DNA of 64,000 bases from Bacteroidales bacterium (GCA_045606385.1 JAZURX010000021.1:6677-70676); one strand, 5' to 3'. Positions 17,649 through 51,059 are shown, counted from the first letter of the stretch. A program made the numbers and translations. Notes: a model not told the origin generated them from the letters alone.

Positions 17649-17668
17649 CCCCAAAAACTTTATGACGT

Positions 17669-24611: not shown

Positions 24612-25640
<1,029 letters not shown>

Positions 25641-25664
25641 TATTATATATCGTTATACAGAATA

Positions 25665-25700
25665 ATCGGCGGCTCATTGCGAGTCGCCGATTTATTTTAT
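25665..25700 (+). terminator. Rho-independent terminator of gap
   Basis: 11-bp stem ATCGGCGGCTC / GAGTCGCCGAT, 5-nt loop, T-rich tail. Confidence 0.8.
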
Positions 25701-25886: not shown

Positions 25887-25894
25887 TATATTTG
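25887..25894 (+). promoter_or_regulatory. -7 promoter box heading the 12-gene SusCD/ABC array
   Basis: TATATTTG, 31 nt upstream of the ATG at 25926. Confidence 0.55.
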
Positions 25895-25925
25895 CATTTC
25901 AATTTACAAGTATCTTGAACCTGTA

Positions 25926-28388
25926 ATGGAGAATCTTTTCCCCAAAAAATATATAGTGGTTATAAGCATGCTGATGTGTGCTTGTGTCTTGTCGCATGCG
26001 CAAAATGATGGGCAAGAAGCAAAGATGGCCGACTCCGGTAAGGAACATGCGATGCTTGCCGGTGACAGAGTGCTCTCGGGAGAGGATTTGCGACAAGTAG
26101 GAGCTGTAAATCTTTGGGGTGCCATTACGGCTATGGAGCCGGCTCTTATCGATGACGCCGTGACGCTTTATGGTGATGCTCCCTCGTTGTACGAGCACGA
26201 TGTGGCAATACAAGGCCATTATACTTGGTCGGCATGGGGTAGTGCGCCATCTGTAGCCTATTATATTGATGGTGCAGAGGTTACAAGTTATCAATTCTCG
26301 TGTGTCAATATACAAGATGTTGCCGAAGTTATAATATATAAAGACCCAATTTCTCTTTCTCGTATGGCTATCGGTGGCGCGGAAGGAGCCATAGAGGTGG
26401 TGACTCGCACACCCGACAAGGGAAAGTTGCGGGTAAATTATATGTTTGATGCGCAATTCCAATCGCCTGACCGCAGGAATCGAGTCGTGACGTCGGGTCT
26501 GCCGGGATATGATTGGAAAGAAGAGCCTTTGCGTACAGGGTTTTCGCATCGTCATAAAGCCGATGTGAGTGGCGGAGATGATTATGTGCGATATAGTTTC
26601 TCGGTCGAAGGAGACCCTTCGGGACAAGGTGTGATGAAAGACGACTATCACAAGACGCTTGGTTTGAGTAACTATATTTCGTATCGCAAGCAGGCGGTAT
26701 CTATATCGAACCGATTATCGTTTTATCAAACAAAAGACAATGCAAGTCCGTATGGCTCGTACGACTATTATACAGCATTGTCGCCTTCGATATATCCATA
26801 TAGTAAGAGTGGAAATACGCTGACATTGTTGCCCGATGGGTCGCTCAATCCTTTGTATGAGGTATCGACCGGCAGTTTCAGTCGGGATAAAATACAGACT
26901 ATACAAGATCATTTGCGTATCAATGTCGCATTACCGTATAATTTATCTATCGATGGCGCATTTACGTTTATTCGAGAAACGGCACGCAACAATTTATACA
27001 TATCGCCCTCGTCGGGAAGGTATGCCGATGCCGAAGCAGGCAGCCACACCGGACGTTACGATATAACGCGCGATAACGAGTTGTCGTTCGATGGAGCCTT
27101 TGCATTGAACTATGATAAACAGATACAAGGGTCGCACATATCGGCATCGGGAGCTGTATCGGTACAAGGTGTGACAACTTACGATGAGACCTACGGAGGG
27201 ATAGGTATATCGACCGATCGTATGGCACATATTTCGTTTACAAAGAGTTATAATACCAACGAAAAGGCTGTGGCACATCGTTATTACGATCGTAGTATTA
27301 CAGGGGATTTTTCGCTCGAATATAGTTACAAAGGACGTTATAGTGCTATTGGTGGGCTTGTGTTGCAAAAATCATCGATATTGGCTCCTGAGTCACGATT
27401 GGCAATATTTTATAATGCCGGTGCGCAGTGGAATCTGCATAATGAGTCATTTATGCAAGATACGGAGGTAGACCGATTGATAATTTCGTATGCGCATGGT
27501 ACAAGTGGAGATGTGATTTTCGGAGATGAAGCGTATCGGGTTACGTATGATACCAATGTGGGCAATGAATATATATATAACTATTATTTAATAGGTTCTT
27601 CGATAGTGATGATGCCCAATAATGCATTGAAACATTATAAGGTGACTCGCAATCAATTGTTGCTTTCGACGCAGTGGCGAGGTTTGTCATTATCGTTTAT
27701 GGGATATGCTCATCGCACGATCGATATGCCTATTATCAGTAGATTACCTCTTGCGACCGGTTATCCCCATACGTTCGATAATGGAGGTGAGCTTATCAAT
27801 CGTGGCGTGGAAATGAATCTGTCGGCCGATATATTGTCGAAGGGAAATTACAGCTTTTCCACTTTTATTTCATTGATGCACAATCGTAATCGCATCGAAA
27901 AGTTGCCCGAATATTTTGCCACGATCTATAATAAGACACTGACCGATAATTATGAAACTGTGGTTGCCGAAAATATAGTACCTTATTTCTTGCAAGAGGG
28001 ACATTCGGTGACCGAATTATATCGCCATGCCGATGATGGAACTCTTGTGGCTGTAGGGTCTACTACTCCTAAGATACAAGGTAATTGGGGATTTTCGGCA
28101 GGATACAAGCAGTTGCGTTTGAATGTAGTAACCACTTTCTCGGCCGGGGCAGTGGCGTTCAATCCCGATGTCGCCATGGAAGCGACAACTGAAGTGGAAG
28201 CAAAAGATAATCGTTTTGGCCTACGTTCGGTACAATTGTCATATACTTTCTCTCCGTGGAAAATTTCCCGCATACAATTTTTGGCTACCGGTGAGAATTT
28301 AGTGCGTTATACATCGTCTCCTTATGGATTAGGACGTTTGTATCCATGTGCGAGAACATTCACATTATCACTTCGATTAGAACTTTGA
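25926..28388 (+). CDS. Short, divergent SusC/RagA-like TonB-dependent outer-membrane protein; lacks the N-terminal STN and carboxypeptidase-regulatory-like domains
   Basis: About 820 aa from MENLFPKKYIVVISMLMCACVLSHAQ (signal peptide). The plug region aligns by eye with the SusC at 29867 (IQG/IRG, YIDGAEV/ILDGFEV, GKLRVNY/GKLQVSY). The C-terminus is LRLEL rather than the usual terminal Phe. The track start at 25869 is rejected. Confidence 0.75.
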   Translation: MENLFPKKYIVVISMLMCACVLSHAQNDGQEAKMADSGKEHAMLAGDRVLSGEDLRQVGAVNLWGAITAMEPALIDDAVTLYGDAPSLYEHDVAIQGHYTWSAWGSAPSVAYYIDGAEVTSYQFSCVNIQDVAEVIIYKDPISLSRMAIGGAEGAIEVVTRTPDKGKLRVNYMFDAQFQSPDRRNRVVTSGLPGYDWKEEPLRTGFSHRHKADVSGGDDYVRYSFSVEGDPSGQGVMKDDYHKTLGLSNYISYRKQAVSISNRLSFYQTKDNASPYGSYDYYTALSPSIYPYSKSGNTLTLLPDGSLNPLYEVSTGSFSRDKIQTIQDHLRINVALPYNLSIDGAFTFIRETARNNLYISPSSGRYADAEAGSHTGRYDITRDNELSFDGAFALNYDKQIQGSHISASGAVSVQGVTTYDETYGGIGISTDRMAHISFTKSYNTNEKAVAHRYYDRSITGDFSLEYSYKGRYSAIGGLVLQKSSILAPESRLAIFYNAGAQWNLHNESFMQDTEVDRLIISYAHGTSGDVIFGDEAYRVTYDTNVGNEYIYNYYLIGSSIVMMPNNALKHYKVTRNQLLLSTQWRGLSLSFMGYAHRTIDMPIISRLPLATGYPHTFDNGGELINRGVEMNLSADILSKGNYSFSTFISLMHNRNRIEKLPEYFATIYNKTLTDNYETVVAENIVPYFLQEGHSVTELYRHADDGTLVAVGSTTPKIQGNWGFSAGYKQLRLNVVTTFSAGAVAFNPDVAMEATTEVEAKDNRFGLRSVQLSYTFSPWKISRIQFLATGENLVRYTSSPYGLGRLYPCARTFTLSLRLEL

Positions 28389-28389
28389 T

Positions 28390-29856
28390 ATGAGTAAAAT
28401 CTTGAGTTATATATTTGCGTTATCATTGTTACTGCCCACATTGTCGTGTAGTGATTGGTTCGATGTGCCATCGGACAATGAAAATATACCCGATTATAAA
28501 TATTTTGGAGACGAAAGTGCGTTTTACAACGCATTGGTAGGGGTATATACGCAGTTACGTGATGCCGATTTGTATGGTGAAAATCTTACGCTTGGTATGC
28601 TCGAGTATATGGGACAGAATTTAGTGCCAACCGATGCCACATCGCAGAGTATGAGTAAATTTTGCTATGATGATGCGGCAGTTGGAGAGAAAATCGTCAC
28701 AGTGATGCGGGAGATGTATCGCAGTATAGCAGCTTGCAATCGTATCATAGCCGAGATAGAACGTACCGATGTGGTATTTTATAATGTCGGACAGAAGGAG
28801 ATAATCGCCGGTGAATTATATGCTTTAAGAGGTGCCTTACATTTTGATTTACTACGTCTTTTTCACCCGAGTTACACATGCGATGCAACATTTGAAGGTA
28901 TATCGTATGAAACTGATTTTGCGAAGGCTACGGATAAACCGTTGACGACAGAGGTACTTATCGATAGTATAGTGAGTGATATAACGAGAGGGGCCGATTT
29001 ATTGTATCAACACGATCCTGTGCTCTCAGGTAAAAACAGTTATATAGCATTGCCGGGCGAAATTGATAGTCGTACACGTACATTTTTCTTGAATTATTAT
29101 GCGGCAACCGCGTTGCTTGCGCGGGTATATCTATATAAGGGCGATTATGTCAATGCTTATTCCTATGCCGAGGAAACATTCAATCATTTGCGTAAACTGC
29201 CGGTAAATGCTCAAATTTTCTACTATGTATCACCGGGAAAATATATAAGCGATTTTTGCTTTTCGCGGGAGCATATATGGGGAATATCATCACTGCCCAA
29301 TGGATTTACCGCATTGTCTGATTCGTTGTTTGCAACGATAGGAGTGAAAGTACGCAGTGATTTATCGGTAATATATCCCGATGTGAACGATACTCGTTTC
29401 AGAGAGTGGTTTACTCTTTGCGACGATGGTACGTATACGTTGCAACACAAGTTTGGAGCGAGTACATTGCTTACCGACTATGTGACCAACTCCGGAGGTA
29501 CTGCCACAGATCTTCCGGCACGAATCCCTATGATAAAATTGGGAGAGGTCGCTCTTATAGCGGCAGAGTCGCTCAATGAGCAGAATCTGCCTGATGAGGC
29601 TGCAGAATGGCTAATAGAGATGCAGGAATCGAAACGAAATTCGATAGTAAGTACGTTGAAGGCGGAAGGAAAAATTTCGGTAGAAAATATAAGAATGGTT
29701 ATTGCCGACGAATATAGACGAGAGTTTTGGGGAGAAGGACAACTATTCTATTTTTATAAAAGAAAAGGTTTGTCGCCCATACTGTCGAGTTCGGGTCATG
29801 AGATAATTATGACCGAAAGCGAATATACATTGCCAATACCCTCGGATATAAAATAA
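28390..29856 (+). CDS. SusD/RagB-family outer-membrane lipoprotein
   Basis: 488 aa with lipobox LLLPTLSC. N-terminal pattern SDWFDV...AFYNALVGVYTQLR and C-terminal EFWGEGQLFYFYKR are typical of SusD-like proteins. Starts 1 nt after the upstream stop. Confidence 0.88.
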   Translation: MSKILSYIFALSLLLPTLSCSDWFDVPSDNENIPDYKYFGDESAFYNALVGVYTQLRDADLYGENLTLGMLEYMGQNLVPTDATSQSMSKFCYDDAAVGEKIVTVMREMYRSIAACNRIIAEIERTDVVFYNVGQKEIIAGELYALRGALHFDLLRLFHPSYTCDATFEGISYETDFAKATDKPLTTEVLIDSIVSDITRGADLLYQHDPVLSGKNSYIALPGEIDSRTRTFFLNYYAATALLARVYLYKGDYVNAYSYAEETFNHLRKLPVNAQIFYYVSPGKYISDFCFSREHIWGISSLPNGFTALSDSLFATIGVKVRSDLSVIYPDVNDTRFREWFTLCDDGTYTLQHKFGASTLLTDYVTNSGGTATDLPARIPMIKLGEVALIAAESLNEQNLPDEAAEWLIEMQESKRNSIVSTLKAEGKISVENIRMVIADEYRREFWGEGQLFYFYKRKGLSPILSSSGHEIIMTESEYTLPIPSDIK

Positions 29857-29866
29857 TATTTCGCAA

Positions 29867-32800
29867 ATGAATATACGGATACTATATATATTGTTGTCGT
29901 TTTTGATGGGAGGTATATTCTTTCCGACCGAGAATATCAGTGCGCAAAAATATATTTCGATGCATATCGATCGTAAGCCGTTGGGCGAGGTTCTGATTGC
30001 TGTGCGCAACTTGTCGGGGTATAATCTCTATGTATCGCCGACGGTAGATGTAGAAAAAGTGGTTTCGGTCATGTTGTCGCATACCGATGTGATGACACTT
30101 CTGCAATCGTTGGATCGAACATTGTCGTATAAGATTGTAGATAATACAATAATTGTAACTCCAAAGAAAGAGCACTTATTACCATCGAAGATATACGGAG
30201 TAGTGGTCGATGAAAATCGAATACCTGTCGTAGGGGTAGTGGTGCAGTGTGGTAAGAAGGCTACTGTTACCGATGCCGAAGGCCGATTTGAAATTACACG
30301 TGACGCTGGCGACAGGACATTGACAATATCATTTATCGGGTATCGTAAGGAAAATGTTGTGATAGGCAAGAAAAATTTCTTTGCCATACAGCTTGTTGCC
30401 GATGTAAACGAACTCGAAGATGTGATAGTGACCGGCTATGCACCGAAGGCTAAGAACAGCTTTACCGGAACAGCAGTGCAGGTAAAGGGCGAAGAATTGC
30501 GTATGATAAACAACAGCAGTTTCTTTGATGCATTGAAGGTGTTTGACCCGTCATTTCAGACGGTCGATACGCGCGGTATGTTTGGCTCGGACCCCAACCA
30601 TGTACCTTCGCAAATAGAAATACGTGGTCAAAATAGTTTCCCGGATATATCGGAAAGCAGTCTCAAAACCGAAACCAGTCTGCCGGTATTTATTCTCGAT
30701 GGATTCGAGGTAAATGTAGAGAAAATATATGACCTCGACATGAATCGTATACAGAGTGTAACGATACTTAAAGACGCGTCGGCATCGGCAATTTATGGTT
30801 CGCGAGCTGCCAATGGCGTGGTGGTGATAGAGAGTAAAAGTCCCGAGGCGGGGAAATTGCAAGTGAGTTATTCTCTCATAGCCGGTATGCAGATACCCGA
30901 CCTTACATCGTACAATCTGATGAATGCCTCGGAAGTACTTGAATTTCAGCAGTCTGCAGGAGTGTTTGATGCGTATGACGTTGGTCAGGACCCCGGGACT
31001 CGTCTCAATTCGTATAATGTAATAAAGAAAGAGATTATGAGTGGAACAGACACGTATTGGCTGTCGAAGCCGTTGCGTGTGGGATTCCAGCATAAACACT
31101 CTCTAATTATCGATGGTAGCGTAAATAACGACACAAAAGAAAAGGAAAGTGGTAGTGTACGTTATTCGGTAAATTTGGCTTTCGGGCAAAACAATGGAGT
31201 GATGAAAGGGTCTGATCGTACAACCTATGAAGCAGGAACAAAACTTATATATAATAGCAAGAAACTATATGTGACCAACGATTTACAATTTGGTATGGTC
31301 AATAGCAGTGAGTCGCCATACGGCTCGTTTTCAAATTATACGCAGGCATTACCCTATCATAGAGAGAAAGATGAGAATGGGGATTATTATCGATACTTGT
31401 CGTTGGCGAATGTCGCTCCTAAAGATATGATTCTGGGTATATTGGCGCAACAACGCTCTCCGATGTATGAAGCCAAATATTTAAACTCGTTCTCAACCAA
31501 AGAGAATTACAACATCAGTAATCGTACGGCTATCAACTGGGAAGTGTTTTCGGATTTGCGGATACGTGCCAATTTTGCTGTCAATTATGATGTGAATCGT
31601 ACCGATGCTTTTATATCACCGCTGAGTTATAATTACACCAACACCAACGATAATTCCTCTACTTCGCCCGGAGTGCTTTACAGTAGAGGTAAATATACAT
31701 TAAATAACAGCAATTCATTGGGCTATGATGGTAATATAGTTGTGTCATATTCTCACTCGTTTGGCGCGCATGATTTGCAGGCCATATTGGGTGGAGAGGT
31801 GAGTCAGGACGATTATGATAGTGATAGTTACAGCCTGACCGGATTTTTGGGCGATGCACACGACTATCTTTCATACGGGATACAATACGAATTATACGGT
31901 CGTCCGTCGGGAAGTGAGAACCTTGTCCGTACAGCCGGAGCGTTTACCAATATCAACTATTCTTATGGTAATAGGTATCTTGTGGACGTTACAGGACGAA
32001 TCGACGGGTCGTCGGTGTATGGAAAAAATCAGCAGACAGCGCCTTTCTGGTCGGTGGGTATCAGGTGGAATGTGCATAATGAAAAGTTCCTCAAGGGTAA
32101 TGATGCCGTACAGAAGTTGGCATTGCGAGCCAATATAGGAACGACCGGTAATCAGAATTATACCAAAAGCCAGGCTACCAGTTTGTACACTTTCCTTACA
32201 TCGGTGTATGGCGGTTACTTTGGTGCATTGATTACCACACTCGGAAATCCCGATTTGAAGGGGCAGGTTACTTTCAATCGTAATATCGGTATCGAAACGA
32301 CGATGTTCAAGAATAAACTTAATTTCGATTTCAACTACTATTATAATACCACAGAAGGTAATCTTACCGATATATCTATAGCGCCTTCTATCGGTTTCGA
32401 TTCGTTCAAAACCAATATGGGAAATCTTACCAATCAGGGGGCTGAGTTCAGTATCAGTTATGTTCCTATACGTACAAGAAATACGATGCTCAATTTTACC
32501 TTGAACGGTGCGCACAATAGCAATAAGATTACAAAAATATCGGACACATTGCGTAAATACAATGAGCAGATAGGTGCCGAGGCCGAATCGGGAGCGGCAA
32601 ACGTATTCTTATTTAAGGAGGGTGAGTCGATGAATACTATCTATGCTGTACGTAGTTTGGGAATAGATCCCGGTACGGGAAAAGAGGTATTTCTTACCAA
32701 AGATGGTCATAAGACTTATACATGGAATTCGGCCGATCAAGTACCTGTGGGTGTAAATGAACCTATTTTACAGGGCTATATAGGTGCTAATTTCAGACAT

Positions 32801-33211
32801 AAAGCGTGGGAATTGGGTGCTACGTTCAATTATTCATTTGGTGCAGACAAGTACAATTATACCTTACATGAAAAGATAGAAAATGTCGATTATATGGTAA
32901 ACAATGATCGACGTGCGCTTACCGAGCGCTGGAAGCAGCCCGGTGATATAGCCCGGTATAAGGCTGTAAACGATAACAGTGTGACGCGCTCAACCTCTCG
33001 ATTTGTGCAACGTGAACGATTACTGAGCCTTACTTCTGTGCGTGTAAGTTATACTCTGCCCAAAGAAATTTTGAAAGGGAAGAGTCTTTCGATGTTGAAG
33101 TTGGCTTTGACTTGTAACGAGATATTCTATTGTTCGACGATAAAGCAAGAACGAGGGTTGGCTTATCCGTTTGCACGTTCGGTCAATTTCTCGGCGTATA
33201 TAAACTTCTAA
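29867..33211 (+). CDS. SusC/RagA-family TonB-dependent receptor with N-terminal STN (FecA-type signalling) domain
   Basis: 1114 aa. STN-like segment KYISMHIDRKPLGEVLIAVRNLSGYNLYV...IVDNTIIVTPK, then a carboxypeptidase-regulatory-like domain (GVVVDENRIPVVGVVV), a plug (ILKDASASAIYGSRAANGVVVIE) and a barrel ending SAYINF. Confidence 0.92.
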   Translation: MNIRILYILLSFLMGGIFFPTENISAQKYISMHIDRKPLGEVLIAVRNLSGYNLYVSPTVDVEKVVSVMLSHTDVMTLLQSLDRTLSYKIVDNTIIVTPKKEHLLPSKIYGVVVDENRIPVVGVVVQCGKKATVTDAEGRFEITRDAGDRTLTISFIGYRKENVVIGKKNFFAIQLVADVNELEDVIVTGYAPKAKNSFTGTAVQVKGEELRMINNSSFFDALKVFDPSFQTVDTRGMFGSDPNHVPSQIEIRGQNSFPDISESSLKTETSLPVFILDGFEVNVEKIYDLDMNRIQSVTILKDASASAIYGSRAANGVVVIESKSPEAGKLQVSYSLIAGMQIPDLTSYNLMNASEVLEFQQSAGVFDAYDVGQDPGTRLNSYNVIKKEIMSGTDTYWLSKPLRVGFQHKHSLIIDGSVNNDTKEKESGSVRYSVNLAFGQNNGVMKGSDRTTYEAGTKLIYNSKKLYVTNDLQFGMVNSSESPYGSFSNYTQALPYHREKDENGDYYRYLSLANVAPKDMILGILAQQRSPMYEAKYLNSFSTKENYNISNRTAINWEVFSDLRIRANFAVNYDVNRTDAFISPLSYNYTNTNDNSSTSPGVLYSRGKYTLNNSNSLGYDGNIVVSYSHSFGAHDLQAILGGEVSQDDYDSDSYSLTGFLGDAHDYLSYGIQYELYGRPSGSENLVRTAGAFTNINYSYGNRYLVDVTGRIDGSSVYGKNQQTAPFWSVGIRWNVHNEKFLKGNDAVQKLALRANIGTTGNQNYTKSQATSLYTFLTSVYGGYFGALITTLGNPDLKGQVTFNRNIGIETTMFKNKLNFDFNYYYNTTEGNLTDISIAPSIGFDSFKTNMGNLTNQGAEFSISYVPIRTRNTMLNFTLNGAHNSNKITKISDTLRKYNEQIGAEAESGAANVFLFKEGESMNTIYAVRSLGIDPGTGKEVFLTKDGHKTYTWNSADQVPVGVNEPILQGYIGANFRHKAWELGATFNYSFGADKYNYTLHEKIENVDYMVNNDRRALTERWKQPGDIARYKAVNDNSVTRSTSRFVQRERLLSLTSVRVSYTLPKEILKGKSLSMLKLALTCNEIFYCSTIKQERGLAYPFARSVNFSAYINF

Positions 33212-33214
33212 GGC

Positions 33215-34651: not shown

Positions 34652-34661
34652 AGAAAAAAGC

Positions 34662-35375
34662 ATGAAACGATATATATACATATTACTACTCTTGTGCGTA
34701 GTTTTTGCATGTAAAGAGGATAAACTGGATCTCTATGATGCGTCGCGCCCCTCTTTGAATATTGCCAAGGGAAATTTCAATCCCGGTGAATATTCCGAGT
34801 CGTACTCTTTCAATGCCTATTTCTTAGGAGTCGGTGCAGGAGATTACATATTGCAGATACCGGTGCGGCTGTCGGGTGAAATAGATTATGAACGCGATCG
34901 TCGATATAATGTAGAGGCCGATGTCGATTCGAGCCGTAATGCAGTGAACGGAGTACATTACACCCTCGACAACGAGCAATTGTTTCGTAAGGGAATGTAT
35001 CAAGATACCATAGCGGTGATTATACATGTCGGAGCCCTCAATACTACCGACGATTATCGTATATGGCTCAAATTAATACCGAATGAAACTTTTGATGTCG
35101 GTATTCCCGACTATCAGTTTGTCTCTATTGATTTTATGAAAAATCTCAATACTGCCCCCCCCTTTTGGGAAAATAACAGTAAATTGGCAAAATTGCCATA
35201 TCACCCCAAAAAGTGTGAGGTTTTTCTCGAGATAAGCGGTATAACCGATCCCGAGTGGGTAGACCCGGGAGGTACCATACAACTCGAATATTGGATAAAT
35301 CTCTGTACGCAATATTTTATTGATAATGAGATTTATGATGAAGAAACAGGAAATCGTATCTATTTTGACCAATAG
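34662..35375 (+). CDS. Surface lipoprotein, probably DUF4843 family (family label from memory of typical SusCD accessory genes)
   Basis: 237 aa from MKRYIYILLLLCVVFAC (lipobox), directly after SusD. The track ORF start at 34623 would overlap the SusD gene. Confidence 0.6.
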   Translation: MKRYIYILLLLCVVFACKEDKLDLYDASRPSLNIAKGNFNPGEYSESYSFNAYFLGVGAGDYILQIPVRLSGEIDYERDRRYNVEADVDSSRNAVNGVHYTLDNEQLFRKGMYQDTIAVIIHVGALNTTDDYRIWLKLIPNETFDVGIPDYQFVSIDFMKNLNTAPPFWENNSKLAKLPYHPKKCEVFLEISGITDPEWVDPGGTIQLEYWINLCTQYFIDNEIYDEETGNRIYFDQ

Positions 35376-35379
35376 TGAT

Positions 35380-36885
35380 ATGGATATAAAAAAACATATA
35401 TATATATTTTGCATGCTATTGTTGTTGAGTAATAGTTCTTGTCTGCAAAATAAAGATAAATCGGCAACATGGGATCCCGATCATGTAGAGAAAGTCTCGG
35501 GTATATCCGAAGATGGATATATACTTTACTTGGGAGATCGTTTCATATGTACGCCCGAAATAACATTCTCTGACAGTACGACAGCCGATGATTATACATA
35601 TCGTTGGATTATCGGCAACAGTGAAGTAATAGGTTGTGATAAGAGATTGGATTGGGAGATAGAATTACCCGTAGGATATAAACTCAACACTGCTATACCC
35701 GGAGTATTTGTAGCGCGTAATAAAATAAATGAACTGGAATTTCGTCAACCATTTACCATAACTATTCTTACAGGTTATACACCTACGTATATTGCTGTGT
35801 ATGAAACATCTGAAGGAAATATAGAATGGACATCGTTGCAAGGAGAACCTCGAGAGTTTACCCGATGGTTTGGCGGAATGGTGGATCGTGTAAATCATGA
35901 TACAATTCCGGGCCCGTTTGTCGGGGCTTTTAATTCTACCGACGAACTTGCTATTTTTACAGCTCATGCTTCGGATTATGGTTATACGATAAGCATGGTC
36001 GACTCGGAGGAGGGTTCTGATTTTGTGGCCAACGTTGGAGAAATCGTAGGTGAAATAAGCGAACGTGTCTATCATGGTACTGCCGAAAATCCTCGCATCA
36101 GCAATGTAGTGTATGGAGTAGGTGCCAGTAAATACCTTATAAGCAATGGTAATTTGCATGTGTTTAACGGCCTTGAAAAACGATTGCCGATGTATAATGA
36201 GGATACTTATGTGAAAAGTAGAAATGTATTGCAGGCGGTCTCTTCAAAACAATTTATGCGTTTCAAAAAGGCTACATTTGTACGTCATACCGATAATCGT
36301 ATAGGTTGTTTCCATGTATATAATGATAAGATGGAATGGGTTACCGATGGAGGAGAGGTATTAAAACTTGATTCGTTATATGGCGCATTCTCGCAATCTA
36401 CAGGAGAAGGTTCGAACAAGCCTTATGATATATATCTTGTTTCCAAGTCGGGCAATGCGTATGAAATGTTGCGATTCCATGTAAATTATGTAAAAACTGC
36501 AGTCCAGCCGATAATTCTTGAAACTCGTTTTGACTTGCCGTCGGATATTGTAGAGAATACCCGTTATTGGTTTGGCTCGTTTGGAGAGGAGTATGCGTTC
36601 TATGTAACACGTAATGCGATATATCGGTTCGACTATCACGATATGACTGCATTTACACCGGCCGAAAAGCCTTTGGTACAATTCTCTGACGATGTGGTAA
36701 TAACAGAAATTTTCCCTTTGCAAGGAAGTACGTTCCGTGACGAAGACGATTGCACGGTAGTTTATCTCTATAATGAGCAGAAGAAAACTACCTCTCTATA
36801 TATTTATGATACTGTTACAGGTCGTAAATTGGCCGAATATCCCGATATATTGCCGGGTAAAGGGCTCTATTTCACCAAACGATAA
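35380..36885 (+). CDS. Surface lipoprotein of unknown function (position and size match the PKD-like family lipoproteins that follow DUF4843 genes)
   Basis: 501 aa from MDIKKHIYIFCMLLLLSNSSC (lipobox). No catalytic motif recognised. Confidence 0.55.
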   Translation: MDIKKHIYIFCMLLLLSNSSCLQNKDKSATWDPDHVEKVSGISEDGYILYLGDRFICTPEITFSDSTTADDYTYRWIIGNSEVIGCDKRLDWEIELPVGYKLNTAIPGVFVARNKINELEFRQPFTITILTGYTPTYIAVYETSEGNIEWTSLQGEPREFTRWFGGMVDRVNHDTIPGPFVGAFNSTDELAIFTAHASDYGYTISMVDSEEGSDFVANVGEIVGEISERVYHGTAENPRISNVVYGVGASKYLISNGNLHVFNGLEKRLPMYNEDTYVKSRNVLQAVSSKQFMRFKKATFVRHTDNRIGCFHVYNDKMEWVTDGGEVLKLDSLYGAFSQSTGEGSNKPYDIYLVSKSGNAYEMLRFHVNYVKTAVQPIILETRFDLPSDIVENTRYWFGSFGEEYAFYVTRNAIYRFDYHDMTAFTPAEKPLVQFSDDVVITEIFPLQGSTFRDEDDCTVVYLYNEQKKTTSLYIYDTVTGRKLAEYPDILPGKGLYFTKR

Positions 36886-36904
36886 AATCAAAAAACTTTA
36901 TACT

Positions 36905-37798
36905 ATGAACGAACCCCGTCCTGTTATCGAATGTCGAAATCTTACCCATTATTATGGTAAGAAATTGGTGTACGAAAATCTGAACATTGTTGTTCCCGAA
37001 GGGCATATTATGGGCTTGCTGGGTAAGAACGGAGCAGGAAAAAGTACGACTATTAATATATTGAACGGTTTTCTTGAACCTCGTTCGGGCGAGTGCCTTA
37101 TCTATGGAGAAAATTCGCAACATTTGTCACCCGAAACCAAAAAACGTATAGGATACCTTATCGAGGGGCATATCCAATACAGTTTTATGAATGTGCATCA
37201 GATAGAAAAGTTTTATTCAGGATTCTATGAAAATTGGAAACGTGATGCCTATTGGGAACTTATCAATCGACTGAAAATAACTCCAAAACAACATATATCT
37301 ACCATGTCGTGCGGGCAACGTGCGCAAGTGGCTCTCGGTCTTATCTTGGCTCAAGACCCAGATTTGTTGATACTCGATGATTTCTCGCTCGGTCTCGACC
37401 CCGGTTATCGTAGGTTGTTTGTTGATTACATGCGGGAATATTGTAAAGCCGAAAATAAAACGGTATTCCTTACATCGCACATTATACAAGATATGGAGCG
37501 TCTCATCGATGATATTCTTATTATGGATTATAATCGTATGTTGGTACAAGGACCTACGCGTGATTTTGTGGAACGGTTCAAAGGCTTTTCTTTTGAACTC
37601 GACCGTGCCGATGTGGTGTTTGACGATCCGGAGGCTGCCAATGTAGAGCATATCAATAATCATTATGAGTTTTATACTTATGCCGAGGAGAGTGATGTGA
37701 AGGCTATTCTCGGCCGTAAGGGGTTGAGATATAATAATTTCGAGCGTATGTCGCTCACCCTTGAAGATGCCTTTATCGGTCTCACCGGAAAATATTAG
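36905..37798 (+). CDS. ABC transporter ATP-binding protein with non-canonical signature and Walker B motifs
   Basis: 297 aa from MNEPRPVIECRNLTHYYG. Walker A GKNGAGKST, signature MSCGQ (canonical LSGGQ), Walker B LLILDD followed by F (canonical D-E), H-loop TSH, and a C-terminal extension of about 80 aa. The track start at 36773 is rejected. Confidence 0.9.
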   Translation: MNEPRPVIECRNLTHYYGKKLVYENLNIVVPEGHIMGLLGKNGAGKSTTINILNGFLEPRSGECLIYGENSQHLSPETKKRIGYLIEGHIQYSFMNVHQIEKFYSGFYENWKRDAYWELINRLKITPKQHISTMSCGQRAQVALGLILAQDPDLLILDDFSLGLDPGYRRLFVDYMREYCKAENKTVFLTSHIIQDMERLIDDILIMDYNRMLVQGPTRDFVERFKGFSFELDRADVVFDDPEAANVEHINNHYEFYTYAEESDVKAILGRKGLRYNNFERMSLTLEDAFIGLTGKY

Positions 37799-37803
37799 GA
37801 GAT

Positions 37804-38487
37804 ATGAAGCCGATTTTGCATCTTTTCTATAAAGAGTGGATAAAGACACGTTTAGGATTTATCTGTTCGTTGCTTGCCAGTATAGGAGTCGTGTTTTATA
37901 TCTTTTTGGTGGTAGAAAACAAAATGACTTTGGTAGGGGCCAAAAATTATACGATGAATGTGTTGTATAATAACCCTCCGATTATATACTATTCGTTATT
38001 GCGATATATACCCATACTTATAGCCGTATGTGTGGGCGTATTGCAATATATGCCCGAGGTAGCACAAAAACGTATACGTCTTACCCTGCATTTGCCGGTC
38101 GATAACAATCGATTGTTTCTCTGTATGGTAGCATTTGGCGTGACTCTTATAACGATAGCTTATATCGTGATTTTTACGTTTTTCTGCTGGAAAAATCACT
38201 CTTTGTTCCCAACAGAGGTGACCTATCCTGTGGAAATGACTGCAATGGCATGGTTTCTTGCCGGGTATATTGTATATAATTTTATTGCCATGGTGGCCAT
38301 GGAGCCCAATCGCATACGTCAAGTATTTTATGCGTTGATCGGGCTTATATTGTCGACGCTCTATTTTCATGAGATTCCTTATCATGGAGCCTATGCCGAC
38401 TCGTTGCCGGTATTGACTGTATTGGCGGTAGTTTCATTCCCGCTTATGTTGTTCAGCGGTTTCCGCTTCAATAAAGGAGAACGTTAA
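37804..38487 (+). CDS. Six-helix ABC-2-type permease-like membrane protein, copy 1
   Basis: 227 aa with about 6 hydrophobic helices. The post-TM2 motif PEVAQKRIRLTLHLPV resembles the E-x-GT-x-L-P-V loop of ABC-2 permeases. Starts 5 nt after the ATPase stop. Confidence 0.7.
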   Translation: MKPILHLFYKEWIKTRLGFICSLLASIGVVFYIFLVVENKMTLVGAKNYTMNVLYNNPPIIYYSLLRYIPILIAVCVGVLQYMPEVAQKRIRLTLHLPVDNNRLFLCMVAFGVTLITIAYIVIFTFFCWKNHSLFPTEVTYPVEMTAMAWFLAGYIVYNFIAMVAMEPNRIRQVFYALIGLILSTLYFHEIPYHGAYADSLPVLTVLAVVSFPLMLFSGFRFNKGER

Positions 38488-38488
38488 T

Positions 38489-39724
38489 ATGGTACATAAA
38501 ATTCTACATATTTTAGCCGTTTTGTTTGCATCTCTTGCCATGTCGTTGATAATTTCGTATGGTCGCGGTCAAGTATATACACATGGCGACTATACCGATG
38601 TGGTTTATTCGGAGTTGTTACACGATTTTATTGTATCTTCGTATGAATATAACGGAGATACTGAAAATCCGCAGCTGTATCGGGTATATAGAGATACGCA
38701 AGGTGCGATAATAGACGAGTCGCTTATCGACTCATTATGCCCGCTCAATAATGCGTCGCAGTTGGCTTTTGAGAATCGTTTCCCCGAGAGCGTGTGTGGA
38801 GTGCCTGTCACAGCTCGTGAGGCGTCCGATGCCGTATATCATCATCGAATCGTAGGCGACGGTCTCGATTATGGCTTGTATGACTTGATAGATGCACATA
38901 GTTATCTATCGCAGCAATTTAGCACAAAAGACCTTTTCCGTTTTACCGGCAAGGGGATAGAATTTATTTTGCCGGAGACAAACAGTGTTGATATTGAAAA
39001 GACAAAATTATTCAATGATGCATTGTGCAATGCGGGTTTTCGCCTCGGAAAAACCGGAATATGGAGTCCTTCGAATCGTACCGATTTGGAACGATATGGA
39101 TTTTTTGTAGCCGATGCCGATGGCCGGTTGTTCCGATTGTCGATGAAAGAGGGCACGCCGATAGTTGAGGCCTTGCCACAGCCTGCCGGCAAATCCATAA
39201 AGTTTATAAGTTTTGTCGACAGAAACGAGTATCTTGCCTTTGTGGTAACGACCGATGGAGCATCTTATGTGCTTTCGCGTGAAGACTATAACTATCGACA
39301 GTTACCGTTACCCTCGCTTATCGATTTCAGTGTGGATATTGATGCCAATCTGTTGTATAATACGTTTGAGTTGACAACATCGGATTTGGTGTTATATATT
39401 GTTCTCGATAAGAACTGGTATCCTGTGGCTCAGTATGAGCGTGAGCGCAAATTTATGCGCCATGTCGATATTAAACCCTATTATATGCCCATATTTGTAT
39501 ATGATACGGCACAAAACGGGGTAGAAATAGAGTTTTCATCGGTGTATAAATTTATTTGGCTCAATCTTGTTCTGGCTGCATTGACATTTTATCTGCGTCG
39601 TCGCAAGGGATACACCCGTTATGTGCAGATTGCCGATACATTGATAGTGATATTGTTGGGGTTGGTGGGTATGATAGGCGCATTTGCCATACCTTATCGT
39701 CGTATTGATAAAAAAATGAAGTAA
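38489..39724 (+). CDS. Membrane-anchored protein of unknown function, copy 1 (I believe DUF4857-like)
   Basis: 411 aa with an N-terminal hydrophobic helix, a soluble region of about 330 aa, and a C-terminal pair of helices separated by RRRKGY. Starts 1 nt after the upstream stop. Confidence 0.6.
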   Translation: MVHKILHILAVLFASLAMSLIISYGRGQVYTHGDYTDVVYSELLHDFIVSSYEYNGDTENPQLYRVYRDTQGAIIDESLIDSLCPLNNASQLAFENRFPESVCGVPVTAREASDAVYHHRIVGDGLDYGLYDLIDAHSYLSQQFSTKDLFRFTGKGIEFILPETNSVDIEKTKLFNDALCNAGFRLGKTGIWSPSNRTDLERYGFFVADADGRLFRLSMKEGTPIVEALPQPAGKSIKFISFVDRNEYLAFVVTTDGASYVLSREDYNYRQLPLPSLIDFSVDIDANLLYNTFELTTSDLVLYIVLDKNWYPVAQYERERKFMRHVDIKPYYMPIFVYDTAQNGVEIEFSSVYKFIWLNLVLAALTFYLRRRKGYTRYVQIADTLIVILLGLVGMIGAFAIPYRRIDKKMK

Positions 39725-39726
39725 AT

Positions 39727-40413
39727 ATGATACCTATACATATAAAACATCTTATATATAAAGAGTGGATAAAAACACGGTGGTATGCGGTGTTGGGAGT
39801 GATATTGACGTTTGCACTCTCGATCGTGATGTGTATGAAGACTGTTCTGACGTTTCATCACATGGATAGTGCCATGTACTATTCGATGTTGATGTCGGGA
39901 AATCTCTCACTTTTCACTATGCTCAAATTTAAGTATTGGGGATTGATAGTGGCGTTGCTTATAGGCCTGCCGCAATTCCTTCCTGAAACAGCCAGTAAAC
40001 GCATACGTCTGACTTTGCATCTACCGGTGAGTAGTGCGACAGTTGTATATTCTATGGTCATATATGGCTTGTTGTTGTGCTGTGCTGTGTTGCTCCCGGC
40101 CCTACTGGTAATTGTAATCACATTAGTCGCTATGTTCCCGAGTGAGGTTATTGTTCCTACTTTGCAGACAATGTTACCATGGCTGCTGGGCGGTATTACC
40201 GGTTATTTCTTTATTGCCATGATTGCATTCGAGCCTATAGCAAAATTCCGTGTATTGTATATCTTGGCAGCCTATTTTGTATTGCGATTCTTTTATATAT
40301 CGTATGGTGTGGGAAATGCAGTGACTGTATATCCGTTATTATTTATCATTACGATTGTGGCAAGTTTATCGGTACTTTATACTTCTCATCGTTTTAATAA
40401 AGGAGAGCTCTGA
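39727..40413 (+). CDS. Six-helix ABC-2-type permease-like membrane protein, copy 2 (paralog of 37804-38487)
   Basis: 228 aa sharing YKEWIKTR, KRIRLTLHLPV and RFNKGE with copy 1. Confidence 0.7.
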   Translation: MIPIHIKHLIYKEWIKTRWYAVLGVILTFALSIVMCMKTVLTFHHMDSAMYYSMLMSGNLSLFTMLKFKYWGLIVALLIGLPQFLPETASKRIRLTLHLPVSSATVVYSMVIYGLLLCCAVLLPALLVIVITLVAMFPSEVIVPTLQTMLPWLLGGITGYFFIAMIAFEPIAKFRVLYILAAYFVLRFFYISYGVGNAVTVYPLLFIITIVASLSVLYTSHRFNKGEL

Positions 40414-40415
40414 TT

Positions 40416-41633
40416 ATGGTAAAGATTATACGAATTCTTCTTATACTGATTACAATTTTTACGATGGCTTTTTATATGCCGTCGACCTATCGTAAAGCAG
40501 TAGAGCGTCGTCCGATGAAGACGATGATATATTTCAGTGAAGTATCAAAAGATTTTGTGATAGCTCGTGAAACCGGTGATTCGATAGGTGGGCAGGCCAC
40601 CATGCGATATTATACGCCGGGAGGCAAGTTGCTCACAGAAAATGAATATATGAGTCTGCTCCCCTTTAACAACCGACGTAAATTGAAGTTGATGGGAGTC
40701 ATGCCCGACTCGTTACATGGTGTAGCGCTTACGACCGATGTGTTGAAAAATGTGAAACGCAGTATGTTGCTTGCGGAGCGTTCGTTCCAATATGAGTTGA
40801 ATCCACTGTTTGAGTCGCAGCCCGATCGCCTTGGAGTATCATTACCTGACGATCTTTTCAGAATGAGTAATACCGGTATAGAGTTTATAGATTGTGCTAC
40901 GGGTGATATACTCGAAGAAAAATCGGAACTTTTTTCCGAGGCATTGTATGCCACCGGCTTTGTTGCTCCGGCACGCGATGTTTATGGTATTCCTTCGGTT
41001 TTGAAACGTTGGGACAGCGGGTATTTCATTGTCGATGCACAAGGGACTCTTTATCATCTGATGATGGTGAAAGGCACTCCATTCTGTCGTAGAATAGAGA
41101 CCGATATCGATGTAAAAAATATGAAATGTCATACCGATGAAGAGATCTTCGCTCATATTTTCGACACGGACAATCGAATGTATGTTTTGACTACCGATTA
41201 TAAGGTGTATCCGCTTGAAACCGATATACTCAACGGCCGATTCTTTATGACATCGAACTGTTTCTATCGTACTTATAAAACGAGTGATGCCGATAGTAGT
41301 ATTATGTATGTATATGATGCTAACTTTGCGCCTGTAGGTCGTTATGCCGAGGTGGTAGACCATTATAGCAATACTCGTGAAGCCGCGTGGGAGCAAAGGG
41401 TATTCCCGTTTTCGGTAATGAAGACTCCGGGATATGCCCATTATATTCCTATTTTCAATCCCATAAAAATGTTTTGGCTTGCCAATGTGATATGTGCCTT
41501 TTTGTGGTTAATCATGAAATTACATCGTCGTCGTAATCTTGCACGTCCCGAGAATATTGCCGACTTGGCTATCATATTGCTTACCGGAGTGTATGGATTT
41601 CTTGCAGTGCTTATATTCCCTAATCGTAAATAA
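40416..41633 (+). CDS. Membrane-anchored protein of unknown function, copy 2 (paralog of 38489-39724)
   Basis: 405 aa sharing LxPxNN, DLFR-x4-GIEFI, G(Y/F)F(I/V)xDAxGxL...GTP and the C-terminal RRR-flanked hydrophobic hairpin with copy 1. Confidence 0.6.
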   Translation: MVKIIRILLILITIFTMAFYMPSTYRKAVERRPMKTMIYFSEVSKDFVIARETGDSIGGQATMRYYTPGGKLLTENEYMSLLPFNNRRKLKLMGVMPDSLHGVALTTDVLKNVKRSMLLAERSFQYELNPLFESQPDRLGVSLPDDLFRMSNTGIEFIDCATGDILEEKSELFSEALYATGFVAPARDVYGIPSVLKRWDSGYFIVDAQGTLYHLMMVKGTPFCRRIETDIDVKNMKCHTDEEIFAHIFDTDNRMYVLTTDYKVYPLETDILNGRFFMTSNCFYRTYKTSDADSSIMYVYDANFAPVGRYAEVVDHYSNTREAAWEQRVFPFSVMKTPGYAHYIPIFNPIKMFWLANVICAFLWLIMKLHRRRNLARPENIADLAIILLTGVYGFLAVLIFPNRK

Positions 41634-41655
41634 TCACATATAAAAAATTAATCAA

Positions 41656-42534
41656 ATGGAAACAAATGTACAACAAAAACAAAAACGTTCGTTTATCGGT
41701 ATTGCGGCTTTTTTGATTGTCCTTTTTACTATGCCTTTGGGACATGCCGCTATGATAGCGATGGAGAATTTTCTTTCAGGAACGGCTCTTACTATGGGTG
41801 CCTTTTTGCTTGGCCTTATTGGTGCCGCATGGACCATCTGGGGCTTCTATATGAAGAGCGAAAACGCAGCGACCTTTGCCGGTCTTATGGGTGGTTTGCT
41901 CGTATGGACGGGTTGGATAGAGTTTACCTATGTATATTATGCACATCGCTATGAGGTTGCTCCTCTGACCGATGCCGGCGGTGAGATTGTGACCAAACCC
42001 GAATATCTGATATTGATGTCGTCGGTAGGCTTTTTGGCTATCGTTATGATGTTCTATACTTTCAGCGCCCGCACCAAATGTGTCTTTTTCTGTTGGTTGC
42101 AGAAGCAGTTGCGTATTGATCGTCATCAAGACAATATGCAGGTGGTGACACGCAACAATTCTATGACTACATTTATGGAAATAACCGTGTTGTTGTGGGT
42201 AAGTTACCTTGTGCTCATGTTTGCCTATGACGATCATCTGCTGGGCGATCGTCACCCTGTGACAGCTTTCATTGCATTTGGCAGTCTGGCTTGGTCGGCA
42301 TATCTATTTGTGAAACTTATGAAGATACGTAAAATAGGTTATGCGGTGCGTTATGCAATTCCTACTGTAATTATTTTCTGGACATTTGTGGAGATATTGG
42401 GCCGCTGGGATATGTTCAGTGAAATATGGACAGAGCCAGCAAAATACAAAATGGAGATGATAACCTTGTTTGTTGTTTTTGTCCTTTTTTCTATATATCT
42501 GTTTGTGCATAAAAAACAAAATAATAAAAAATAG
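41656..42534 (+). CDS. Polytopic (about 8 helices) integral membrane protein of unknown function
   Basis: 292 aa, last gene of the array. No motif recognised. Confidence 0.6.
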   Translation: METNVQQKQKRSFIGIAAFLIVLFTMPLGHAAMIAMENFLSGTALTMGAFLLGLIGAAWTIWGFYMKSENAATFAGLMGGLLVWTGWIEFTYVYYAHRYEVAPLTDAGGEIVTKPEYLILMSSVGFLAIVMMFYTFSARTKCVFFCWLQKQLRIDRHQDNMQVVTRNNSMTTFMEITVLLWVSYLVLMFAYDDHLLGDRHPVTAFIAFGSLAWSAYLFVKLMKIRKIGYAVRYAIPTVIIFWTFVEILGRWDMFSEIWTEPAKYKMEMITLFVVFVLFSIYLFVHKKQNNKK

Positions 42535-42535
42535 T

Positions 42536-42543
42536 TATCTTTG
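42536..42543 (+). promoter_or_regulatory. Possible -7 box for the LRR gene
   Basis: TATCTTTG directly after the upstream stop. The hairpin at 42554-42590 would then lie in the 5' leader. Confidence 0.3.
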
Positions 42544-42553
42544 TAAGATAATG

Positions 42554-42590
42554 AGCCAAAGAGGACGACTACACGCCTCTTTGGCTTTGT
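42554..42590 (+). terminator. Hairpin ending the 12-gene array
   Basis: 11-bp stem AGCCAAAGAGG / CCTCTTTGGCT, 11-nt loop, weak TTTGTGT tail. Confidence 0.55.
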
Positions 42591-43687: not shown

Positions 43688-43730
43688 ATATCGCCGTCAC
43701 CCTTTATCGGGCGACGGCGATATTTTTTTA
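43688..43730 (+). terminator. Rho-independent terminator of the LRR gene
   Basis: 11-bp stem ATATCGCCGTC / GACGGCGATAT followed by a T7 run. Confidence 0.85.
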
Positions 43731-49898: not shown

Positions 49899-49922
49899 GG
49901 AATATTTTTTATGAGTTAATGT

Positions 49923-50903: not shown

Positions 50904-51059
50904 GGAATGATTGTTTAGTTAAGGCAAAAATACAATATTTTTTCTGTTTGGTAGTGGATTCTTGTCGCAAAAAGGTGTTTTTATTCTTCTATTAGTTGTT
51001 TTAATATACAAATAGTCGGCGTATTTGTGCTGACTATCTGTATATTAAATAAAGTAGAA

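Follow-up and report, generated by a model that had tools for sequence, protein, structure and literature searches.

The 64,000-nucleotide stretch analysed here, from the genome of a Coprobacter-like gut bacterium of the Bacteroidales (GCA_045606385.1 JAZURX010000021.1:6677-70676, in the following called the window) carries a tightly packed array of plus-strand genes, g1 to g13, in which two SusC-like/SusD-like pairs and two further lipoproteins are encoded together with an ATP-binding cassette (ABC) module. The latter is composed of one ATPase and two copies of a pair, each consisting of a protein with six transmembrane (TM) helices and a DUF4857 protein. Since this module occurs almost always beside a TonB-dependent transporter (TBDT) in several phyla, it probably forms the inner half of a route by which a compound other than a sugar is taken up. 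In our preferred reading, to which we give about even credence, the genes encode a pathway that spans the envelope and acquires a non-glycan ligand, with the ATPase/permease/DUF4857 complex as inner-membrane or periplasmic acceptor. Candidate ligands are peptides or proteins, or else a cofactor or metal complex.

A profile scan over one genome per species yielded 57 loci, the genes of which were labelled by BLAST and phmmer. The triad of ATPase, 6-TM protein and DUF4857 protein was adjacent and colinear in every related locus with enough sequence. Of 38 loci flanked by 7 kb or more on each side (one contig being counted twice), 36 have a TBDT or SusC within 7 kb of the triad, the exceptions being L060 and L061. 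Linked loci stem from Bacteroidota, Ignavibacteria, Campylobacteraceae and Desulforegulaceae and fall into four contexts. In gut Bacteroidales, the module is accompanied by two SusCD pairs, a DUF4843 and a PKD-like lipoprotein. Chitinophagaceae loci (L036, L046 and L050) combine an ECF (extracytoplasmic function) sigma factor, FecR, SusC and SusD with the triad, FecR being assigned by Pfam in L046. A TBDT together with DUF4876 and DUF6850 proteins is found in Prolixibacteraceae, Paludibacteraceae, Rikenellaceae, Prevotellaceae, Ignavibacteria and Rhodothermaceae, and a plain TBDT, with its Plug domain recognised by Pfam, in Campylobacteraceae and Desulforegulaceae.

The Chitinophagaceae loci, for example L046:931-11227 (likewise L036 and L050), are minimal, reading ECF sigma, FecR, SusC, SusD, ATPase, 6-TM protein and DUF4857 without other lipoproteins or enzymes, and judged by this gene order represent the classic layout of trans-envelope-signalled uptake. 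A metagenomic variant, L006:1-14765, encodes a SusC with STN domain, SusD, a TlpA/AhpC-like lipoprotein, DsbD, an M16 peptidase and two complete triads with ATPases that are 96% identical, and this gene content suggests a disulfide-containing peptide or protein as cargo in that lineage. An M16 peptidase gene is also found near L051 and L065, while no M16 domain is present in the window array. Arrays with two SusCD pairs have two permease/DUF4857 halves and loci with one TBDT have a single half, L006 being an evident exception. Additionally, a homologous module belongs to the Bacteroides thetaiotaomicron locus BT3625-BT3633, which was induced 37-128-fold by iron depletion in the only DUF4857-mentioning literature found (PMC10434189), the sole expression data published for the module. 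Near-obligate linkage to inward-working receptors, the sigma/FecR/SusCD/triad loci, the M16/TlpA/DsbD variant and this induction by iron starvation together speak indirectly for uptake rather than export. An earlier note, made from the window sequence alone, had proposed a dedicated trans-envelope pathway of either direction. Comparative genomics strongly supports a functional link of outer-membrane TBDTs to the ABC module.

The array as a whole is likewise conserved, and its synteny is not confined to this genome. It recurs in metagenome-assembled genomes (MAGs) of Coprobacter, Candidatus Caccoplasma, Muribaculaceae and Odoribacter as well as in Coprobacter secundus 177, where the orthologous array is L016. 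The closest relatives of g11 are found in a Coprobacter sp. MAG (77%) and in Ca. Caccoplasma and 'Porphyromonadaceae'/Bacteroides MAGs (67%), followed by Coprobacter secundus 177 and Muribaculaceae (52-54%) and Odoribacter (45-47%). In all these relatives, the gene order is SusC, SusD, DUF4843, PKD-like, ATPase, 6TM, DUF4857, 6TM, DUF4857, to which g12 and a leucine-rich-repeat (LRR) gene are added in the Coprobacter, Caccoplasma and Muribaculaceae arrays. A search with g1 revealed that the g1-g2 pair is also conserved and always stands first in the array, with g1 leading in L069, L070 and L071. Complete copies of the array, g1 included, show protein identities of 35-80%. Its upstream neighbours vary: the gene for GAPDH in the window, tyrS in L069 and L071, and an M64 peptidase gene plus polysaccharide-export genes in L070. 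Being kept behind such differing neighbours, the array constitutes a self-contained, conserved unit and is probably inherited vertically. CAZyme (carbohydrate-active enzyme) or regulator domains were not found in the orthologous arrays.

At the centre of the ABC module is the ATPase g7 (36905-37798, 297 aa; ABC_tran, 81 bits). Its best NCBIfam matches, PmtA, DrrA, GldA and NodI, all stay under their cut-offs and its closest solved nucleotide-binding domains (NBDs) are those of ABCA3, ABCA7, ABCA4 and ABCA1, so that by sequence similarity g7 can be placed in the ABC-2/type V (ABCA) lineage. Walker A (GKNGAGKS) and the H-loop are present, the signature motif reads MSCGQ, and Walker B (LLILDDF) carries Asp for the catalytic Glu; g7 thus belongs to the ABC ATPase fold with non-canonical motifs. 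In alignment with the four ABCA domains, this Asp falls on their catalytic Glu, the residue changed to Gln in the trapped ABCA3 mutant 7w02. Both deviations extend to 63 of 63 full-length module ATPases from every lineage sampled, with Walker B reading hhhLDD[FY] and the signature MS[CN]GQ or LSCGQ, not LSGGQ. As a family trait, the exchange of Glu for Asp suggests slow, switch-like hydrolysis rather than a high-flux pump. One ATPase gene serving two diverged permease/DUF4857 pairs implies a g7 homodimer under a heterodimeric membrane part (g8/g10), and such a homodimer would contain two non-canonical ATP sites.

The first permease-like protein, g8 (37804-38487, 227 aa), displays six long helices in its AlphaFold2 model (pLDDT 87), and its paralogue g10 (39727-40413, 228 aa), 29-34% identical, carries the same invariant motifs. 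Neither protein has a Pfam or NCBIfam match at E ≤ 0.01. When the 29 g8-family members were run against Pfam at E ≤ 5, the outcome was noise, with a single ABC2_membrane_2 match at E = 0.59. In a Foldseek comparison of the g8 model with the PDB, NosY was best (TM-score 0.53-0.56, probability 1.0, E = 0.03-0.2), followed by CcmB, ABCG1 and ABCG25. The ABC-2 architecture claimed in the earlier note is supported by the ATPase lineage and, suggestively, by the permease fold, both of ABC-2/type V kind, although no Pfam or NCBIfam membrane-domain model applies and the fold similarity stands at a TM-score of about 0.55. Invariant motifs of the g8 family are YKEWIKTR at the N-terminus, PE..KRIRLTLHLP between TM2 and TM3, where a coupling helix is expected, EP after TM4 and RFxKG at the C-terminus, all of them on the side predicted to be cytoplasmic and to face the NBD. 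The loops towards the periplasm are short, which leaves DUF4857 as candidate periplasmic element.

The two DUF4857 proteins, g9 (38489-39724, 411 aa) and g11 (40416-41633, 405 aa), reach 179 and 244 bits, respectively, against PF16149 (gathering score 25) and are 25% identical to each other. In its AlphaFold2 model (pLDDT 84), g11 starts with a TM helix, followed by a beta-rich, propeller-like domain of some 310 residues and a pair of TM helices at the C-terminus. In diverged homologues, basic residues consistently mark the N-terminal flank and the loop between TM2 and TM3, and on the basis of these flanks the beta domain is probably periplasmic. WD40- and TolB-like propellers turned up as Foldseek matches of g11 and were rejected as relatives of DUF4857, as they are generic (TM-score 0.2-0.25); a sequence search of the PDB with g11 gave nothing useful.

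On the outer-membrane side, g3 (29867-33211, 1114 aa) is a full-length SusC/RagA transporter, scoring 540 bits against TIGR04056 (cut-off 368) and 57 bits with the TIGR04057 SusC signature. It comprises an STN-like N-terminal extension, a CarboxypepD_reg domain (Pfam CarbopepD_reg_2), a TonB-box region (EDVIVTGY) and a Plug domain, so that full length, NTE/CarboxypepD domain, TonB box, plug and signature are all found. The STN match itself is weak (E = 0.012), while clear STN domains are present in the L005 orthologue and in the SusC of variant locus L006; the extension hints at an unlinked anti-sigma partner. Directly downstream follows g4 (33215-34651, 478 aa), a SusD-like lipoprotein with a lipobox cysteine, which scores 45 bits and above gathering score for SusD-like_3 and 19.1 bits, below the gathering score of 23.1, for SusD_RagB, and for which SusD homologues were found in the PDB. 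The other SusD-like lipoprotein, g2 (28390-29856, 488 aa), exceeds the gathering scores of both SusD-like_3 and SusD_RagB, has the lipobox LSC followed by acidic residues, and is 30% identical to g4. By domain score, lipoprotein signal and position right after a SusC, both g2 and g4 belong to the SusD/RagB family.

The earlier note had spoken of two SusC/SusD pairs, and this is accurate for g3 as a standard SusC, but g1 (25926-28388, 820 aa) is not one. This short barrel comprises a signal peptide, a variable linker, a degenerate plug and the barrel domain. It scores 186 bits against TIGR04056, well below the cut-off of 368, with model positions 270-861 matched. No Pfam domain was detected above threshold in g1, Plug reaching E = 0.03 only, and neither a CarboxypepD/NTE domain, an N-terminal extension nor a TonB-box-like motif was found. 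The alignment of g1 with g3 begins at the plug, at 23% identity. Its clade comprises 11 clusters of 808-903 aa that are 35-65% identical over their full length, beyond which identity falls sharply, ordinary SusCs following at 21-25%; Pfam gave no match for 10 of these clusters and a Plug match for one. In the family alignment, the signal peptide and a non-conserved linker lead directly into the plug (GDRVLSG..LRR..NLWNAI..LEPS), and a TonB box of the VxVxGY type before the plug is absent from all 10 members aligned. Judged from these sequences, g1 is a SusC-like barrel outside standard SusC/RagA membership, and its clade a conserved, selected group of SusC-like barrels without TonB box. We know of no characterised counterpart.

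Of the accessory proteins, g5 (34662-35375, 237 aa) is a DUF4843 lipoprotein (PF16132, 45.8 bits; gathering score 34.5) that is kept in every SusCD-type array and carries the lipobox VFAC followed by KEDKLD, similar to a surface-export signal. The next gene, g6 (35380-36885), encodes a 501-aa PKD-like family lipoprotein, which at 35.4 bits stays just under the PF16407 gathering score of 39.2, the domain being clear in its orthologues. Its C-terminal part of about 360 aa has no known domain and may hold a novel enzyme; Pfam gave no catalytic-domain match in g6. Searches of all PDB chains (including 5fq6-5fq8) by phmmer and with orthologue profiles found no relatives of g5 or g6 at E ≤ 1 to 10, and hence homology to BT2261/2262 could not be shown at sequence level. 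A literature search on DUF4843, PF16132, PF16407, PF16149 and PKD-like family lipoprotein gave nothing relevant. Downstream of the module, g12 (41656-42534, 292 aa) is a polytopic membrane protein of an unnamed family with about 7-8 TM helices and no Pfam or NCBIfam match. An exhaustive phmmer search identified 345 representatives in a set of 1.84 billion; Pfam domains are likewise missing from 10 relatives, some of which are longer. It is kept after g11 in the Coprobacter, Caccoplasma and Muribaculaceae arrays and absent from the Odoribacter arrays. Cytochrome b561 was considered for g12 and rejected, given that a faint match on a 128-aa gene at the g12 position in L005 was not reproduced with g12. 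Finally, g13 (42620-43669, 349 aa) is a BspA-type LRR protein (LRR_5, 100 bits) with a signal peptide of the SPI type. As its N-terminal Cys is not conserved, it is probably no lipoprotein, and that candidate assignment was dropped.

Taken together as a mechanism, the canonical TonB-dependent pair g3/g4 would capture and import the ligand, assisted by the TonB-box-less pair g1/g2, the lipoproteins g5 and g6 and the secreted LRR protein g13. In the inner membrane, a g7 homodimer would sit beneath a heterodimer of the ABC-2-like 6-TM proteins g8 and g10, each paired with its DUF4857 protein (g9 and g11, respectively), the beta-rich domains of which would reach into the periplasm. Cargo leaving the SusC barrel would be taken over by this machine. 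Driven by ATP binding and hydrolysis, the cargo would then either enter or cross the inner membrane, or be passed on within the periplasm, in the latter case in the manner of a mechanotransducer of NosDFY, Lpt or CcmAB type.

Several observations weigh against such an acquisition pathway. To our knowledge, the bacterial ABC-2/type V transporters characterised so far are exporters or extractors, not importers. The Foldseek E-values of g8 are weak (0.03), with no match at E ≤ 0.001, and Foldseek with the g11 model produced no convincing structural relative of DUF4857. For g9 and g11 themselves the positive-inside rule is ambiguous, and it is the family-wide charge pattern alone that favours the periplasm. 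DUF4857 has no conserved His, Cys or Met that would suggest metal binding, the LRR, PKD-like and DUF4843 proteins give no hint of the ligand, and the array includes no periplasmic binding protein of known kind. The iron regulation belongs to DUF4876-type loci, not to the SusCD type present here, and a plug-bearing barrel without TonB box such as g1 has no obvious role in TonB-driven uptake.

The strongest competitor of the acquisition pathway, which we nevertheless consider unlikely, is an ABC module working outward by exporting or recycling a secreted carrier ('phore'), an emptied carrier or a toxic by-product. Its appeal lies in the ATPase and permease folds, which come from exporter and extractor lineages (PmtA, DrrA, NodI, GldA, ABCA/ABCG and NosY), and in the PepSY-type putative reductases of the B. 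thetaiotaomicron locus, which fit periplasmic unloading followed by recycling. A precedent is PvdRT-OpmQ, which recycles pyoverdine after unloading in the periplasm. However, none of the loci examined contains a biosynthetic or precursor gene, the genetic partner of the module is the receptor, not any biosynthetic cluster, the minimal L046-type loci encode nothing to export, and a slow Glu-to-Asp ATPase would be odd for an efflux pump. As to small precursor-peptide genes, which a bacteriocin or RiPP (ribosomally synthesised and post-translationally modified peptide) reading would call for, there is no room within the array, and only low-quality open reading frames (ORFs) follow g13. Somewhat less probable still is an envelope-biogenesis extractor, modelled on LolCDE, LptB2FGC or NosDFY-NosL, that would assemble cognate lipoproteins (SusD, DUF4843, PKD-like or DUF4876 lids) or lipid onto the transporter. 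Most neighbouring transporters identified do have a lipoprotein lid, SusD or DUF4876, and the combination of ABC-2 permease and membrane-anchored periplasmic domain matches the mechanotransducers LptB2FGC and NosDFY; moreover, surface-lipoprotein sorting in Bacteroidota is not settled (see also PMC12889592). Yet the module is rare, with 28 g11-close DUF4857 clusters and 85 6-TM clusters in 5.8 billion proteins, while hundreds of SusCD systems per genome manage without it, and the Campylobacteraceae loci, which do have a TBDT, gave no match to the lid families tested.

Two further explanations rank lower than either of these, and about level with each other. One of them, an ordinary glycan system resembling a polysaccharide utilisation locus (PUL), with its enzymes and regulator elsewhere and with unrelated ABC genes sharing the transcript by chance, appears improbable. 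It would account for the weak but detectable resemblance of the SusD-like proteins g2 and g4 to glycan-binding SusD structures, for 8aa4_A, a glycan-utilisome SusC, being the closest solved structure to g3 (RagA comes next, and BT2264 is distant at E = 2e-20), and for pectin-degrading genes about 5 kb downstream on the opposite strand. In contrast, the SusCD-lipoprotein-ABC order is kept across genera with changing neighbours and without a CAZyme in any copy, the linkage of triad and TBDT reaches across phyla, and the downstream pectin genes are absent from orthologous loci. The other explanation, a similarly long shot, is that the triad is in physical contact with the barrels of the outer membrane, each SusC-type barrel having a permease/DUF4857 half of its own, and that the switch-like ATPase gates or energises g1. 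If true, this would be an ATP-powered alternative to TonB for a plugged 22-strand barrel.

Regarding transcription, ORF listing and translation gave g1 to g12 as consecutive genes spanning 25926-42534, start codons being picked to yield signal peptides or lipoboxes. The intergenic gaps of the earlier note (1, 10, 3, 10, 4, 19, 5, 1, 2, 2 and 22 nt) were reproduced exactly, with 12 of 12 genes on the plus strand, and at 1-22 nt they are consistent with the single operon proposed there. Its further statement that internal promoters and terminators are lacking has to be narrowed, since the tight gaps exclude intergenic signals, whereas promoters could still lie within coding sequence. The upstream boundary of the unit is the strong intrinsic terminator (25664-25692, plus strand; 12-bp stem with 7 GC pairs, then a T-run) of the GAPDH gene, which was identified by Pfam at 24633-25640. 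A putative promoter element is provided by the Bacteroidetes-type -7 box TATATTTG at 25887-25894 (plus strand), an exact TAnnTTTG as read in the sequence, which ends 31 nt 5' of the g1 ATG (25926); the orthologous arrays L069 and L071 show a similar AT-rich element ending in TTTG, aligned equally far from the start codon. While the exact match at 25887 thus stands as first described, the nearest upstream TTTG is 16 nt away, a non-consensus -33 spacing, so that the -33/-7 pair is imperfect and the strict two-box pattern is not matched.

Within the array, the sole promoter-like match to TTTG-N17-23-TAnnTTTG is located at 28384-28417 (plus strand), straddling the g1 stop and the g2 start, and is probably non-functional because its -7 box falls inside g2. 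A scan of the array found no -33/-7-like match before the ABC genes. The outcome of a sigma-70 promoter scan was disregarded, as its 61 sites compare with 61.1 in shuffled sequence, and so were terminator-like matches within the array, all of which lie in coding sequence and within about 1.6 sd of expectation.

At the 3' side, the 85-nt spacer between g12 and g13 (-28 kcal/mol, z = -5.1) contains a stable hairpin without U-tract at 42554-42588 (plus strand), for which the terminator scan gave no call. The hairpin described earlier is therefore real, but the operon end assigned to it is probably wrong, given the missing U-tract and the LRR gene that follows. Most likely, the hairpin is an element internal to the unit and not a canonical terminator, possibly an attenuator or RNA-stabilising element. 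No counterpart was noticed in the relatives, for which the length of this spacer was compared. A canonical intrinsic terminator, ATATCGCCGTC...GACGGCGATAT followed by T7 (about 43689-43728, plus strand; 11-bp GC-rich stem, read in the sequence), stands 3' of g13 and is the probable true 3' end of the operon; of five orthologous arrays inspected, at least four also have inverted repeats behind g13. An LRR gene lies 3' of g12 in L001, L007, L012, L013, L015, L016, L018, L019 and L024; the orthologous arrays so arranged number eight, on seven distinct contigs, and the gap between the two is 11-45 nt in the seven orthologous arrays checked, compared with 85 nt in the window. Because of this recurrence after g12 and the canonical terminator 3' of g13, the unit most likely comprises 13 genes, g1 to g13.

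As the earlier note had stated for g1 to g12, no CAZyme, peptidase or regulator domain was detected in any of these genes by Pfam and NCBIfam. DNA-binding domains were not found in them either, and g13 showed no CAZyme or regulator domain. Concerning regulation, that statement is to be qualified by the STN-like extension of g3 and by the ECF sigma/FecR genes directly upstream in distant relatives. A search for a linked regulator covered 25 kb on the upstream side (dcw cluster, serS, mdh, GAPDH) and some 8 kb of annotated sequence on the downstream side, and found only a LexA-like repressor gene (HTH_19 and Peptidase_S24) at 44262-44948 (plus strand), 0.6 kb 3' of the array. This gene is absent from the orthologous loci examined and hence probably unrelated to the array. 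In L007:14554-19220, the array is followed by genes for an ECF sigma factor, a 264-aa protein, a DUF4252 protein and an OMP_b-brl_3 protein, a sigma cluster of a different, widespread type and not of the FecR type.

The wider surroundings are those of a chromosomal housekeeping neighbourhood, as indicated by a complete dcw cluster at 4272-18871 (plus strand) with mraW, a PASTA-domain penicillin-binding protein gene, murE, mraY, murD, ftsW, murG, murC, a 245-aa gene, ftsA and ftsZ. The 245-aa ORF (15604-16341, plus strand) occupies the position of ftsQ; like a 197-aa ORF at 1621-2214 (minus strand), it has no Pfam match at E ≤ 1e-4. On the other side of the array, a minus-strand cluster at 48222-60555 begins with GH43 and pectinesterase genes, followed by several large ORFs, and probably represents a pectin or arabinan utilisation locus of its own.

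In the prevailing view, Bacteroidota depend on SusCD/TBDT systems in the outer membrane and possess comparatively few ABC importers in the inner membrane, and little is known about what becomes of non-glycan cargo once it is outside the barrel. SusCD loci without CAZymes and operons pairing a TBDT with an ABC system are already known kinds. What appears to be undescribed in the literature found is this particular ABC module with its phylum-crossing receptor linkage and its Asp-for-Glu ATPase, as well as the duplicated, heterodimeric version tied to two SusCD pairs and the SusC-like clade without TonB box. The locus points to an unstudied three-protein ABC module tied to TBDTs across at least four phylum-level lineages and strongly iron-regulated in B. 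thetaiotaomicron. Both this module and the g1 clade are open to direct tests in cultured Coprobacter secundus 177 and B. thetaiotaomicron (BT3625-27), and work on either could fill in a step, at the inner membrane or in the periplasm, that is missing from the picture of a class of micronutrient or peptide uptake systems in gut bacteria.

Among known systems, the classical PUL, defined by SusCD plus CAZyme plus dedicated sensor, corresponds neither to g1-g13 nor to the orthologous arrays. With BT2261-2264 and RagAB, SusCD-like complexes for non-glycan or peptide ligands, the array shares a SusCD core followed by two extra lipoprotein genes and the lack of CAZymes; we know of no ABC module reported for these loci. 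The parallel to BT2261-2264 drawn in the earlier note is thus apt for the architecture and less so for the proteins, as g5 and g6 have no detectable sequence similarity to BT2261/2262 and match nothing in the PDB, and g3 is nearer to other SusCs and RagA than to BT2264. For PUL27 (BT2262-64), a fitness phenotype in vivo, but no defined substrate, has been described (PMC8121099).

On the inner-membrane side, NosDFY(L), CcmAB and LptB2FGC are, like the module, made up of an ATPase on a chain of its own, a 6-TM ABC-2-like permease and a partner protein in the periplasm. They differ in that DUF4857 is beta-propeller-like, compared with the beta-helix of NosD or the jellyroll of Lpt proteins, and in the Asp of g7 in place of the catalytic Glu. 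GldAFG is a further relative to be considered, GldA being among the best NCBIfam matches of g7 (118 bits, below the cut-off of 402.6) and GldG being a membrane-anchored periplasmic protein; models for NosY, GldF, GldG and ABC2_membrane gave no matches in g8-g11.

Fus systems (FusA as TBDT, FusC as M16 protease and FusD as inner-membrane transporter; YddA-YddB-PqqL in Escherichia coli) resemble the array in that a TonB receptor is encoded with an exporter-like ABC protein and in the logic of importing a non-sugar macromolecular ligand, M16 being present in the relative L006 as well. However, FusD and YddA are fused half-transporters of another ABC fold, Fus receptors are not of SusC type, and the full set of TBDT, M16 protease and inner-membrane ABC system in one cluster is not found in the window array. 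Fus and other protease-associated clusters with TBDT, M16 protease and inner-membrane transporter import proteins, which the SusCD-M16-triad arrangement of L006 echoes (PMC6793856).

The closest described locus is BT3625-BT3633 with genes for DUF4857, a hypothetical protein, an ABC ATPase, two PepSY proteins, a fimbrillin-like protein, two DUF4876 proteins and a TBDT (PMC10434189). BT3633 and BT3632 have been proposed as transporter-lid pair with a proximity conserved in 59 genera, in a text on this lid that leaves the ABC genes unmentioned (10.1101/2023.03.17.533168). The Porphyromonas gingivalis DUF4876/TBDT pair PG1019/PG1020 is among the differentially expressed genes in the transcriptome of a PG_0686 mutant, and a DUF4876 protein is listed in a hemin-availability transcriptome. 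Common to BT3625-BT3633 and the array are DUF4857, a small hypothetical protein and an ABC ATPase beside a TBDT with lipoprotein lids, and the same layout occurs in L004, L008 and L025-L067. Peculiar to the B. thetaiotaomicron locus are its non-SusC TBDT, DUF4876/DUF6850, PepSY reductases and a single permease/DUF4857 pair, whereas the array in the window is set apart by two SusC/SusD pairs, DUF4843 and PKD-like lipoproteins, a duplicated and diverged permease/DUF4857 pair, g12 and the LRR protein.

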